A DNA stretch of 60,095 nt from Candidatus Aenigmatarchaeota archaeon. GTDB lineage: Archaea; Aenigmatarchaeota; Aenigmatarchaeia; CG10238-14; SpSt-28. The translations under genes and the position numbers were made by a program. Location of the stretch: assembly GCA_049976365.1 (NCBI GenBank), contig JBMFIJ010000001.1, forward strand, positions 1 through 60,095, in the 5' to 3' direction. Shown piece by piece: positions 4,215 through 15,378 of the stretch (position 1 is its first letter; each line of letters starts with the position of its first letter). The notes under the pieces are model-generated. The model was not told the DNA's origin and ran no database searches. It saw only the letters and a list, made by a program, of their open reading frames with translations.

Positions 4215-4547
4215 TTTGTTAGATTTCCGGCCACCCTTGGGCTGTTGGGAGTGGCAGGCTCGCAGCTCGCCCGAAGGCTCGCTGCATACACCTCCACCCC
4301 ATCAACGCCATCGTCTATGGCAGCCCTCGTCTCTCTACCGGGTTTCCCCAGTAGAGAGATTGGCCGTCTATTTTTCCGGGTGGTTTCCCCCTTAGATGCT
4401 TTCAGGGGTTATCCACTGGGGCGTGGCTGCCCGGCATGCCAAATGGACAACCGGTAAACCAGAGGCCCCGGAAGCGCGTTCCTTTCGTACTTGCGCTTCC
4501 TTCCGGTCAGACGGCTAGCACTCCCGGTAGATAGCGACCGAACTGTC

Positions 4548-4671
4548 TCTATCGCCGCATACAAGAGAATACTATCTATTAGATGTTTTCGACCCAGCAA
4601 CGATAGCTATTTCATCCTTTTGGCAAGATATAAATGCCAAAATGTCTATAGCAAGTGACCCTTGTATGCGG
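4548..4671 (-). other. About 124-nt insertion in 23S at the I-CreI/L2593 site (intron-like, no ORF)
   Basis: The canonical GUCGUGA|GACAGUUCGG is split. The insert ends pair perfectly: CCGCAUACAAG with CUUGUAUGCGG (11 bp). Confidence 0.8.
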
Positions 4672-4800
4672 TCACGACGTTCTGAACCCAGCTAGCGTCC
4701 CCCTTTAACCAGTGGACACCTGTACCCTTGGCCACTGCTGCATGGCCAGGAGGGGGGGAGCCGACAGCTACGCACCAACGCGCCGGGTCAATTTGCCTGT

Positions 4801-4900
4801 CACTATCTGCAGGAAACGAGACCCACGCAGATAGCTTTACTGTGGGCTTTCACCGGCCACGGGCCCATTCTGGAGGATAGGCAAAAATCAAAAGCCTATC
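4801..4900 (-). other. 57-100-nt insertion in 23S at the GGGGAUA|ACAG peptidyl-transferase site (I-SceI/L2449 position); boundary ambiguous
   Basis: GGGGAUA (4901-4907) is separated from ACAGGC (4795-4800) by 100 nt. A second ACAG at 4840-4843 gives an alternative 57-nt insert (4844-4900). The insert contains the hairpin GAUAGGC-UUUUGAUUUUU-GCCUAUC. Confidence 0.6.
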
Positions 4901-5044
4901 TATCCCCGAGGTAGCTTTTCTGATACCACCGGCCCCCATTAAGGGGTACCGATGTATCGCTAACCCACGCTTTCGCGGCTGGAACCCTCGCTTTGTGGGT
5001 TCCAGTCAGCCCACCTTTTGCGTTTGCACTCTACCCCGGATTTC

Positions 5045-5132
5045 TTTCGGGTGAAGATTCTCTTACTATCAAAAGCTACCCCGCTAATCATTTGGTCATT
5101 CGGGAGCGACCTTATCATCTAGAGAATCTTCA
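5045..5132 (-). other. About 88-nt insertion inside the conserved GGGUCA-GAAAUCC hairpin loop of 23S domain V
   Basis: A perfect 12-bp closing stem, UGAAGAUUCUCU/AGAGAAUCUUCA (5121-5132 with 5052-5063), interrupts CCCGGGUCA...GAAAUCCGGGG. Confidence 0.7.
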
Positions 5133-5360
5133 TGACCCGGGTGAGGTGAGCTTTGGGCCCCCTCGATATCTTTTCGAGGGGGTGCCGCCCCAGCCGAACT
5201 GCCCATCTAGCGCTGTCCCCTCTTCGGGTAAGCTGTAAAGTCCCAGAAGGCTGGTGTTACACTTGCCCCTCGGCTTCGGCCGAAGCCTACGCCTGATAGC
5301 GGGTCCCAGCTACTCTATGCAACCAGGACTTTACAGCAACGCCAGACTGCAGTAAAGCTC

Positions 5361-5398
5361 TCCGCTAGAAGGAATTAATGATTAATTCCTTCTATCTA
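5361..5398 (-). other. About 35-nt hairpin insertion in 23S after GACCCCGU (near E. coli 2068)
   Basis: The near-perfect palindrome AGAAGGAAUUAAUCAUUAAUUCCUUCU (5367-5393) sits between GACCCCGU and GAGCUUUACUGCAG, which are contiguous in canonical LSU rRNA. Confidence 0.65.
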
Positions 5399-5540
5399 CG
5401 GGGTCTACGTTTCCCACCGGGAGTCTCCGGCCTATTCACCGGAAAGCCGAGTTCGCTGGGTCCCTCCCCGGGACAGCGCCCAGGTCGTTAAGCTGTTCAA
5501 CCGGCCGCCATTTAAGCGGCAAGGGATTACGCTACTTCTG

Positions 5541-5618
5541 TCGCCCAAGGCGGCGTCTAGGCTTTCATAGCTATTTCTGTAAGTCAGAAGCTCTAGCTCA
5601 AATGACCGCCTGAGATAC
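5541..5618 (-). other. About 78-nt insertion in 23S at the I-CeuI/L1923 site (intron-like, no ORF)
   Basis: The canonical GUAACUCUGACCGUC|CUAAGGUAGCG reads GUAACUCUGACCGUC-[insert]-CAGAAGUAGCGUAAUCCCUUG. The insert ends (CAGGCGGUC ... GACGCCGCCUUG) can pair. Confidence 0.7.
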
Positions 5619-5746
5619 GACGGTCAGAGTTACCGCCGCCGCTCTGCGGGGCTTAGCCCGGTTGTAACCGGGTTTCACACACCGCAGCTGGGCAAACCTC
5701 AGGGACTGTACTCATCCTTTCGGACTAGCAGTCCCCTGCGTTTTTT

Positions 5747-5847
5747 AACCTGGGAAGAAAGGATATGATAGACTTTTTGGTAAGTTTGTAAATTGAACAT
5801 TTTTCCCAAACTATACCATTTAATACTTAAAATTTCCTCTCTTCCCG
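5747..5847 (-). other. About 100-nt AT-rich insertion in 23S after GACUGUUUAACAAAC (near E. coli 1785)
   Basis: Closing stem GGGAAGAGAGGA/UCCUUUCUUCCC (5835-5846 with 5752-5763). The canonical sequence continues AAAAACGCAGG immediately after the insert. Confidence 0.7.
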
Positions 5848-7243
5848 TTTGTTAAACAGTCGCCTGGGCCTTGTCACTGCGACCTGCAGTCCCTTCTATC
5901 CCTTGCCTTCTAAAGAAGGCTTAGGATAGTCAGGACTACAGGCACCCCTTCTAGCGAACATACGGGGCCAACTTGCCGATTTCCCTGGGGAGGGTTCTCC
6001 CAACACGCCGTTCCCTTCTCAGGAAGCCCACCTGTGCCGGTTCTCGGTACGGTCTAGGGGAATCCTTGTGGATTGCCTTTTCACGGGCTCCAAGAATCGG
6101 CCGAACTCCCTTACGGGAGCCCATCCTGCCTTCAGCTCCTTCTCCTCATTACGAGACTCCGGAGCCTTCGGCAGTTAGCTTGCGTCGGCCTATCTCGAAG
6201 CGTCGGCAATCCACCTTGCCTCGCGGCACGTATCCCCTAGGTTCCGGAATATTAACCGGATTCCCTTTCTCGGGTTCGCCGATTAAGGGAACCCTTAGGA
6301 CCGACTAACTGCCGGCTGACGAACATTGCCGGCAAACCCTTGGGCTTCAGGCGGCTGGGATTCTCACCCAGCTCGGCTGCTACTTTCGGCGGGATCTGCA
6401 TTACTGTGTGGTCCATGGGAGTTCACACCCCCACTTCTACCCACACAGTACGCCCCCCTACCATCTCTTATCGAGATCTGGGGTATCGGCAGTCGGCTTA
6501 GTCCCTTCCATCTTCAGGGCACAAACCCTCGGCGGGTAAGTTGTTGTACACTTCTTAGCTGATGGCTACTTTTAGGCCCACAGCCCCGCTGTCTAAGGGT
6601 TTGTACCCCTTCTTCGTTTAGCCGACATTTAGGGGCCTTAACCCCAGTCTGGGTTGTTCCCCTCACGAGTGCCGAGCTTACCCCAGCACTCATTTTCCCA
6701 CCTTCTACGAGGCTGGCGGATTCGGAGTTTGACAGAGTGGCTGAGCCTTTCGGCCCTTGACCACTCGATCAGTAACTCTACCCCACCAGCACTCTCAGGT
6801 GAGACTGCTCTGCGGAGCATATCGGGGGGAACCGGCTATGAGGCCGCTCGATTGGCTTTTCACCCCTAATCCTGGCTCACGAGAGGGATTGGCATCTCAC
6901 CACCTCTATCGGGCCTCCACCTCCCTTTCGGGAGGCTTCACCCTGGCCAGGATTAGATCGCGGCCCTTCCGGTTGTAGGCGAGTGACTTCAGGCGCTTTC
7001 ACACCCCGCGCCTCACTTGGTTTTAACCAAGTTGCGCGCGAGTCGCTTTCGCTACGGCTTCGGGGTTTAACCCCTTAACCTCGCCACTCACCTACACTCC
7101 CCGCCCCGTTTTTCCAAACGGACGTCAGGACGGTGTTAGTCGTCTCTCGCTTTTTAGCTTCAAGACGACATCTTTCCCGCCCTGACAGACTATAACCGCT
7201 TGGTTTCAGGCTCTTTTCACCCCGCTTTCGCGGTGCTTTTCAG

Positions 7244-7344
7244 CTTTCCAGGCGGTTAGCCGAGTAAAAGGATTAAGTTTAAATAAAAAATTCCAGCTTT
7301 TCCTGATTGAATCATTTTATTACATATATGCCTTCGACTAACCG
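7244..7344 (-). other. About 101-nt AT-rich insertion in 23S domain I (between GGAAAG and CUGAAAAGCACC)
   Basis: The canonical GUACCGUGAGGGAAAGCUGAAAAGCACC is split. The insert is bounded by the direct repeat GGAAAG and closed by GCGGUUAGUCGA/UCGGCUAACCGC. Confidence 0.7.
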
Positions 7345-7867
7345 CTTTCCGTCACCGTACTAGTACGCTATCGGACTCTGGGTGTGTTTAGGGTTGGATG
7401 TTAATGCCACCCAGCTTCCCACTCCCAAATCAGGGAATGGTACTCAGGAGACCTGGAATTTCCCTTCTCCCCTTCCCCTACGGGACTATCACCCTCTATG
7501 GTAGGGCATTCCAGCCCACTTCGGGTCGAGGAGTTAGGGAATACCCAGGTCCTACAACTCCACATTCCAGTTAGCTTTTCGCCAACCGGTTCGGTTTGCC
7601 CTTTGCCGGTTTCGGTCGCCCCTACTCCCGGCATCTCATTTGATTTCTCTTCCTGCGGGTACTGAGATGCTTCACTTCCCCGCGTCCCCCTTCCAGGTCT
7701 TTAAGACCTGGAATGCCTCTAAACGAGGCAGGATTCCCATTCGGAAATCCCGGGGTCTAAGGCCGCGTGCGCCTAACCCGGGCCTATCGTGGCTTGCCAC
7801 GTCCTTCTTCGGCCCCAGAGCCGAGCCATCCACCAAGCGGCGTAGCAGTGGCCGGAAACCCCTTAAC

Positions 7868-15126: not shown

Positions 15127-15378
15127 GGTGTGCCTGCCATAACCCACCTTCTGTTCAGGGCAGCATTCGTCTAAGCGCCTTAAAGGCTTGCATCTCATCG
15201 ATTGTGTAGGTCCGTTTCACCCTTTTGTAAGCAACTCATATTTTAATCATCGTTATCGCTTACAAAAGGTCTCGTTTCTGATACCTACACAGGGCTTCTC
15301 AGCCCTTTTAATCTCGATGGGTGGAATTTCCTCACCCTTGCTTTTGGGCAAGGGCGAAGCTGCCCAGCAGGCTCACCC
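15126..15378 (-). ncRNA. rnpB: RNase P RNA (compact, about 253 nt, type A-like)
   Basis: The reverse strand reads:
- P1: GGGUGAGCCUGC, pairing with GCAGGCACACCC at the 3' end.
- P2: GGGCAGC/GCUGCCC.
- CR-I: GAGGAAAUUCCACC.
- CR-II/III: AGGGUGAAACGGAC.
- CR-V: ACAGAAGGUGGGUUAUGG.
The region is a GC-rich island. Confidence 0.85.

Follow-up and report, generated by a model that had tools for sequence, protein, structure and literature searches.

We found that the 124-nt insert in the 23S rRNA gene of an Aenigmatarchaeota archaeon is very probably an ORF-less archaeal bulge-helix-bulge (BHB) intron, a reading drawn from its sequence and from comparison with its relatives. The host organism is a DPANN archaeon, and its source genome, a fragmented MAG, comprises 571 kb on 86 contigs and is 88.6% complete. 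The analysed stretch of DNA (the window, 60,095 nt) carries the archaeal LSU (23S) rRNA gene at 7857..4225 on its minus strand. The gene is 3633 nt long, was identified with Rfam RF02540 (2399.7 bits, covering positions 1-2987 of the 2987-position model) and contains seven mini-introns according to a map of its inserts against relatives. All coordinates are window positions, and all features of the 23S gene lie on the minus strand. No 16S gene was found in the window (1-60095), and the 23S gene is unlinked to one there. The window also contains an archaeal RNase P RNA (15128-15376, minus strand) and one tRNA.

Position and boundaries of the insert

The 124 extra nucleotides lie in the GUGA loop of helix 93 (H93), where the rRNA strand reads ...AACGUCGUGA CCGCAUACAAG ... 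CUUGUAUGCGG CGAUAGA GACAGUUCGG or, with longer flanks, ...GGGUUCAGAACGUCGUGA-CCGCAUACAAG...CUUGUAUGCGG-CGAUAGA-GACAGUUCGGUC.... Because about 25 relatives carry the uninterrupted sequence AGAACGUCGUGAGACAGUUCGGUC, the 124 nt are extra, and the insertion into 23S rRNA that an earlier note on this DNA had described is confirmed. A repeated GA makes the boundary ambiguous by 3 positions, and the BHB geometry sets it at 4672..4549. The earlier note's split after GUGA, with an insert at 4548-4671, gives way to this minus-strand interval. It had also ended the insert with the stem arm, whereas seven further bases, CGAUAGA, follow CUUGUAUGCGG. The terminal stem that it had called a perfect 11-bp helix is present, but can be extended to 13 bp. 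We agree with it that the insert contains no ORF of its own. The G+C content of the insert is 0.40, compared to 0.55-0.64 in the flanking rRNA, and a BLAST search of its own genome found no second copy.

In E. coli numbering, the interrupted GUGA is G2595-A2598, the tetraloop of H93, and the junction falls between G2597 and A2598 (G2597/A2598; a slash between bases marks a junction). The numbering was obtained by aligning the joined exons to E. coli 23S rRNA, with the bulged A2602 and U2585 as anchors; the E. coli rrl copy used has 2 nt more than the reference on the 5′ side of the H93 region. GUGA corresponds to the four base pairs at the centre of the 22-bp I-CreI target CAAAACGTCGTGAGACAGTTTG, where the scissile bonds lie (PMC6035192). 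The insert was previously said to sit exactly at the I-CreI/L2593 site. It does lie within the I-CreI target, in the central GTGA, but its junction lies 4 nt further 3′ than L2593, the insertion point of group I introns.

BHB architecture of the exon-intron junctions

The insert and its flanking exons contain two 3-nt bulges on opposite strands, with the 4-bp helix GUCG:CGAU between them. On the 5′ strand, the exon sequence GUCG (4675..4678, E. coli G2592-G2595) forms the exon strand of the central helix and is paired in 18/18 same-site introns. It is followed by the 5′ bulge UGA (4672..4674, invariant in alignment A2), which runs directly into the 5′ arm of P1, CCGCAUACAAGGG (4659..4671), the intron-side helix h′ of the BHB. 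On the 3′ strand, the 3′ arm of P1, CUCUUGUAUGCGG (4555..4567, placed by stem pairing and covariation), runs directly into the intron tail CGAU (4551..4554), whose pairing with the exon GUCG is kept across relatives, and then into the 3′ bulge AGA (4548..4550, A-N-A in 18/18 introns). Once the rRNA is mature, the 5′ strand at the top of H93 is made up of G2592-C2594, with G2595 as the first base of the GUGA loop.

In tRNA introns, the cut as a rule follows the second base of each bulge. By this geometry, the predicted 5′ cut lies between G4673 and A4672 and the predicted 3′ cut between G4549 and A4548, and A4548 becomes A2598 of the mature GUGA loop. The intron bounded by these cut sites, A-CCGC...GCGG-CGAUAG, is 124 nt long (4549..4672; geometric BHB scan and ungapped junction). 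Removing 4672..4549 in silico produces GUCGUG/AGACAG, which is ungapped when compared to the intron-less relatives G015, G047 and G053. The predicted spliced junction is ...AACGUCGUG/AGACAGUUCGG, and the predicted junction of a circular intron is ...GCGGCGAUAG/ACCGCAUAC (CGAUAG/ACCGC).

The motif is the relaxed h′BH form and not the strict hBHBh′ form, with an exon-side helix of 1 bp (C2591-G2599) beside the 3′ bulge and an intron-side helix of 13 bp. A BHB search of the insert and its flanks, as suggested in the earlier note, found a BHB in the right register, while minimum free energy (MFE) folding recovered neither the BHB nor the k-turn described below. In a 184-nt context, the BHB fold lies 4.7 kcal/mol above the predicted minimum (-53.0 versus -57.7 kcal/mol). 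That MFE folding misses them is expected for protein-stabilised and non-canonical motifs. Geometric scanning was itself unspecific: a first scan (stem of at least 5) returned about 1000 matches, equal to shuffled sequences, and a strict scan (stem of at least 8) returned 20 matches, compared to 8.4 in shuffles. Therefore, geometry alone was not used as evidence, and weight was placed on register and conservation. An exact search for the species-specific spliced junction in metagenome contigs gave no match; these contigs are mostly DNA, and the search was hence uninformative.

Conservation and covariation among introns at the same site

We scanned 371 genomes of the class by pattern, together with genome and metagenome collections, and found introns at exactly G2597/A2598 in at least about 20 genomes, with sizes from 61 to 752 nt. 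The first pattern applied to the genome collection, GTTYAGAACGTCGTGAH, gave mostly chance matches in bacterial protein genes, together with at least 7 useful loci. Every same-site intron begins with a stem arm straight after UGA and ends with the complementary arm followed by CG[A/G][C/U]A[A/U/G]A. When 18 distinct same-site introns (61-752 nt) are compared, 100% of the cells of the central helix are paired. Relatives carry CGAU, CGAC or CGGC as the tail, and the changes only exchange Watson-Crick and wobble pairs (G-C/G-U, U-A/U-G). Double compensatory changes occur at 9/9 scored pairs of P1 (18 distinct junctions), and the covariation score is 0.704, compared to 0.290 in shuffles (reached in 0/500) and at most 0.166 when the register is slid. 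Occurrence of the introns is patchy across the family and, it appears, inside the genus too, as expected of an intron and not of a fixed rRNA feature.

Intron size at G2597/A2598 varies 12-fold, and the long versions (722-752 nt; loci L084/L172, L161/L184, L200 and L201) encode proteins of about 215 aa with two LAGLIDADG motifs (Pfam LAGLIDADG_3, E = 2e-11). Longer LAGLIDADG-containing versions in relatives, as the earlier note anticipated, are thus found at the exact site, one such ORF in each. A structural part of the peptidyl-transferase centre (PTC) could not have such a size range, with protein-coding versions included. These 722-752-nt introns gave no match to a group I core, and among solved structures their LAGLIDADG proteins have no relative detectable by sequence. 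A bacterial LSU rRNA (L145:556-850) carries a genuine group I intron at about U2596 (RF00028, 54.3 bits), 1 nt from the archaeal BHB site.

Two of the smaller same-site introns, in G111 (231 nt) and G142 (129 nt), are deletion derivatives of endonuclease-bearing introns (Smith-Waterman, z = 7-33), showing that endonuclease loss does occur at the 2597 site. The earlier note had viewed the 124-nt insert as the relic of a mobile intron that lost its endonuclease. An intron at a classic homing-endonuclease target fits part of that view, but neither the interior of the 124-nt intron nor its close relatives contain a remnant of the endonuclease gene (z < 1 against the endonuclease-bearing introns). 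For this element, loss of an endonuclease is plausible by analogy only.

Splicing machinery and proposed mechanism

The source genome encodes both a splicing endonuclease and an RNA ligase. There are two EndA paralogues (PF01974 twice, 93.6 and 77.2 bits), a 187-aa protein of the N+catalytic form (G000:C34:435-998) and a 410-aa multi-unit protein with an extra N-terminal unit (G000:C4; L034:1189-2421, minus strand). The ligase is RtcB (PF01139, 576 bits). Multi-unit EndA of this kind has been reported to accept relaxed motifs. The presence of two EndA paralogues stands out in a 0.57-Mb genome with seven introns in its 23S gene alone.

In the proposed mechanism, the 3′ tail CGAU of the intron would pair with the exon GUCG (G2592-G2595) in the pre-rRNA, displacing the native H93 pairing, and this pairing together with the 13-bp P1 would present the bulges UGA and AGA around a 4-bp helix. 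The tRNA-splicing endonuclease EndA would then cut after the second base of each bulge. RtcB would join the exons, restoring the universal GUCGUG/AGACAG and the GUGA tetraloop of H93, and would probably circularise the intron as well. What the sequences show is the BHB geometry with its conservation and covariation, exons that are restored exactly, and genes for the enzymes; from these we infer cleavage and ligation themselves.

Alternative explanations

Hairpin loops are the usual birthplace of expansion segments, and the 124 nt could remain in the mature 23S rRNA, lengthening the H93 loop. We consider this very unlikely: H93 belongs to the core of the PTC, the site holds between 0 and 752 nt with protein-coding versions included, and the insert is AT-rich within GC-rich rRNA. 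The conserved 6-7-nt tail would moreover have no role in an expansion segment, yet it forms part of a register-perfect BHB in 18/18 introns. The same BHB evidence would serve equally well for a processing site without religation, where EndA excises the insert and the 23S halves stay unjoined, and fragmented rRNAs do occur in other organisms. This possibility has a lower probability still, as RtcB is present in the genome, seven such sites would divide the 23S rRNA into eight pieces, and the exact universal sequence restored by the cuts is relevant only if the ends are joined.

The Cr.LSU-type intron to which the insert had earlier been likened would make it a degenerate group I intron of the Cr.LSU/IA3 type, either self-splicing or a dead relic. 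IA3 introns do exist at LSU/2593 in other DPANN archaea (PMC6125680), and the L145 intron at about U2596 is a genuine group I intron in this rRNA stretch. However, that same intron acts as a positive control for Rfam, which finds no group I match in the 124-nt insert at E ≤ 10 and returns only a chance lncRNA match. The insert is also too small for a P3-P9 core and is 4 nt off L2593; of its three possible boundaries, the one with a U-ending exon (GUCGU/) leaves an intron ending in A, not G; and the long same-site introns likewise have no group I match. We give the group I reading only the slightest chance. The fragmentation of the MAG into 86 contigs could raise suspicion of a chimeric join within the rRNA gene, made in assembly or binning, but a homologous insert at this site is present in at least 6 independent genomes as well as 5 metagenome contigs, and the 60-kb contig that makes up the window has intact flanks. 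The insert is not an assembly artefact, and the probability of such an error is next to nil. A BHB intron is the explanation that we carry forward.

Six further inserts in the 23S gene

Relative to its kin, the 23S gene contains six other inserts, all without an ORF: I1 (7246-7346, 101 nt), I2 (5744-5848, 105 nt), I3 (5538-5615, 78 nt), I4 (5360-5395, 36 nt), I5 (5046-5133, 88 nt) and I6 (4870-4901, 32 nt), with the 124-nt intron under study as I7 (4549-4672). Each of I1-I6 has a BHB with a 4-bp helix between two 3-nt bulges, apart from one exception with 3 bp plus A.G. The predicted cuts restore the consensus rRNA, with junctions that are ungapped when compared to intron-less relatives. At I6, located at GGGGAUA, comparison with relatives (GGGGAUAAUGGGCCC) gives a GGGG:CUCC helix and the bulges AUA and AGA; the remaining extra sequence around it is a lineage-wide expansion of the H89 region that is common to relatives. 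None of I1-I6 carries a k-turn core. At most of the seven inserts, the G+C content falls to 0.31-0.46, compared to 0.55-0.64 in the exons, which fits sequence outside the mature rRNA. The corrected annotation has seven predicted BHB introns in the 23S gene and a mature rRNA about 564 nt shorter than the gene, and it bears on rRNA-based phylogeny, on probe and primer design and on the modelling of DPANN ribosomes.

A conserved core with a k-turn-like hairpin

The 124-nt intron is a member of an ORF-less lineage that has a conserved, structured core of its own. The core (4590..4657, defined by the covariance model R1) consists of CAC, P2, GA, the hairpin P3, GAUGA, P2′ and then AUCGUUGCUGGGUCG, and the consensus downstream of P2′ is AUCG..GGGUCG in the 124-nt intron and its close relatives. 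Within it, descriptor matches and covariation delimit a k-turn-like hairpin (4606..4652). Here, GCUAU (4652..4648) pairs with AUAGC (4610..4606) to form P2, the putative NC helix, GA (4646..4645) lies opposite GAU-GA (4616..4612), and P3 (4642..4618) is the putative C helix. On the 3′ side of this hairpin lie J2, a conserved single-stranded segment UAUCGUUGCUGGGUCGAAAAC (4585..4605) that is kept in introns at both insertion sites discussed below, and a variable 3′ hairpin region (4568..4584) that is missing from shorter relatives in alignment A1.

The hairpin has the sequence pattern of a k-turn, with a C helix, a 3-nt loop, tandem G.A/A.G pairs and an NC helix. A k-turn descriptor matches 7/14 small same-site introns, compared to 0.37 expected, and its background is about 2 chance matches per 3.6 kb. 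P2 and P3 both covary (0.687 versus 0.184, 0/500; nine distinct sequences) in an alignment that was chosen by its own descriptor, which inflates the percentage paired, and that comprises two sub-families of shared ancestry. In this alignment GA, U and GA do not vary, and the positions at which a k-turn should be non-canonical are indeed non-canonical. Some relatives have a non-Watson-Crick pair at k-turn position -1, or an A at position 2n. L7Ae (G000:C5:14178-14450) and fibrillarin are encoded in the source genome. That the internal hairpin is a k-turn bound by L7Ae, and aids the folding or processing of the intron, seems to us about equally likely to be right or wrong; its protein binding is suggested by the motif and by the presence of the gene.

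Two classes of small RNA were considered for the core and rejected. A box C/D sRNA combines a C box (RUGAUGA), a D box (CUGA) and antisense guides. The core has neither a D box (CUGA) nor guides, only GGAUGAA opposite xGA, with flanking strands that pair mutually as P2 instead of with a target. In box H/ACA sRNAs the ACA lies 14-16 nt 3′ of the pseudouridylation pocket; in the core, the distance from P2 to ACA is at least 25 nt, and the shortest member has just 3 nt (CAC) as its 5′ pocket strand.

We also compared J2 with the neighbouring rRNA. The intron segment UGCUGGGUC (4585-4605) is complementary over 9 pairs to the invariant 3′ strand of H89, GACCCGGCG (4770-4790). The duplex of J2 with the H89 3′ strand GACCCGGCGCG has an energy of -20.2, among the top three, and is no better than shuffled J2 (-19.6 ± 1.9). 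The likeness of J2 to the exon sequence GCUGGGU at the other insertion site is statistically indistinguishable from chance.

Core-bearing introns at a second site

Model R1 was built on five relatives, with the window left out. It recovers 4590..4657 at 45.3 bits (E = 4.7e-9) as the sole significant match in the source genome. Over 118 genomes of the order, R1 also matches introns in G028 (L359), G150 (L360), G111 (L363), G119 (L361), G020 (L362) and G141 (L358). Those six introns are located at GCUGGGU/UCAGAAC (U2584/U2585), 13 nt upstream of G2597/A2598, and their tail CCAGAA pairs with the exon CUGG to give a canonical BHB with correct cuts. G150 and G111 carry, in addition to the core intron at U2584/U2585, a second and unrelated intron at G2597/A2598. 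In G022 (L037) and G049 (L038), U2584/U2585 is occupied by endonuclease-bearing BHB introns of 646-647 nt that do not have the core, and the core family yielded no member with an endonuclease gene.

In G141, an insert of about 32 nt, located about 60 nt 3′ of its R1 match, splits GAGACA/GUUCGG (approximately A2602/G2603). Consequently, the order has at least 3 insertion sites within 20 nt of the PTC.

A broader interpretation, which we advance as doubtful, is that the core (CAC, P2, k-turn hairpin, AAKCGCG..GGGUC) marks a self-standing lineage of ORF-less BHB mini-introns. The lineage would have colonised both U2584/U2585 and G2597/A2598 by changing only its 6-nt tail (CCAGAA or CGAYAA). Its core would attract L7Ae, might also base-pair with rRNA nearby and would act as an aid to folding or processing in late PTC assembly, and the lineage would be kept by this function and not by a homing endonuclease. 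Further work is best directed at the k-turn-like core, which introns at two PTC sites have in common.

One site offers a natural series of endonuclease-bearing introns, deletion remnants and an ORF-less core lineage that is also present, with a re-tailored BHB, at a neighbouring site. The series makes testable how archaeal introns without an endonuclease persist and move, and whether intron RNA structure, possibly with L7Ae, assists splicing or ribosome assembly. In related small-genome organisms, group I introns (L2593 and about L2596) and BHB introns (L2597) occur within 5 nt, a co-occurrence relevant to the proposed descent of BHB introns from group I introns (PMC6125680).

Comparison with known systems

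Group I introns at LSU/2593 (Cr.LSU with I-CreI, and archaeal IA3; PMC6125680, PMC6035192) interrupt the same rRNA stretch as the 124-nt intron, whose junction lies inside the central GTGA, and in its relatives a LAGLIDADG endonuclease is likewise tied to the site. Unlike these introns, the 124-nt intron would be excised by a protein endonuclease and not by a ribozyme, has no group I core and is inserted 4 nt downstream. The related endonucleases differ from the I-CreI system in that they match Pfam LAGLIDADG_3 and have no sequence match to solved structures.

The rRNA insertions of CPR bacteria (PMC11270868) are similar in that ultra-small, host-dependent organisms carry many insertions in 23S rRNA. 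Their LAGLIDADG genes are clustered at sites such as 1917, 1931, 2593 and 2604 (PMC11270868). In contrast to the 124-nt intron, they are bacterial and largely of group I, group II-like or unknown type, with no BHB and no EndA pathway.

The euryarchaeal pre-tRNA-Trp intron contains a box C/D RNA bound by L7Ae. The 124-nt intron resembles it as a predicted BHB intron with an internal GA/GA k-turn-type motif of the kind that L7Ae recognises. Unlike the pre-tRNA-Trp intron, it has no D box (CUGA), no guides and no second C′/D′ pair, and it interrupts an rRNA and not a tRNA.

Archaeal BHB introns in rRNA include those of Desulfurococcus mobilis 23S rRNA (I-DmoI), Staphylothermus marinus and Pyrobaculum, and the ORF-less I-beta of Aeropyrum pernix. 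They have been reviewed (PMC3608112, PMC6125680), and we found no report of an archaeal intron at G2597/A2598 in the accessible literature. The 124-nt intron shares with them a conserved rRNA site and a BHB that arises from exon-intron pairing and must rearrange to the native rRNA, as well as a predicted dependence on EndA and a ligase and the coexistence of versions with and without a LAGLIDADG gene. It differs from them in its DPANN host, in being one of seven very small introns (32-124 nt) in a single gene, in its location in the GUGA loop of H93 and in an interior with a conserved k-turn-like core.
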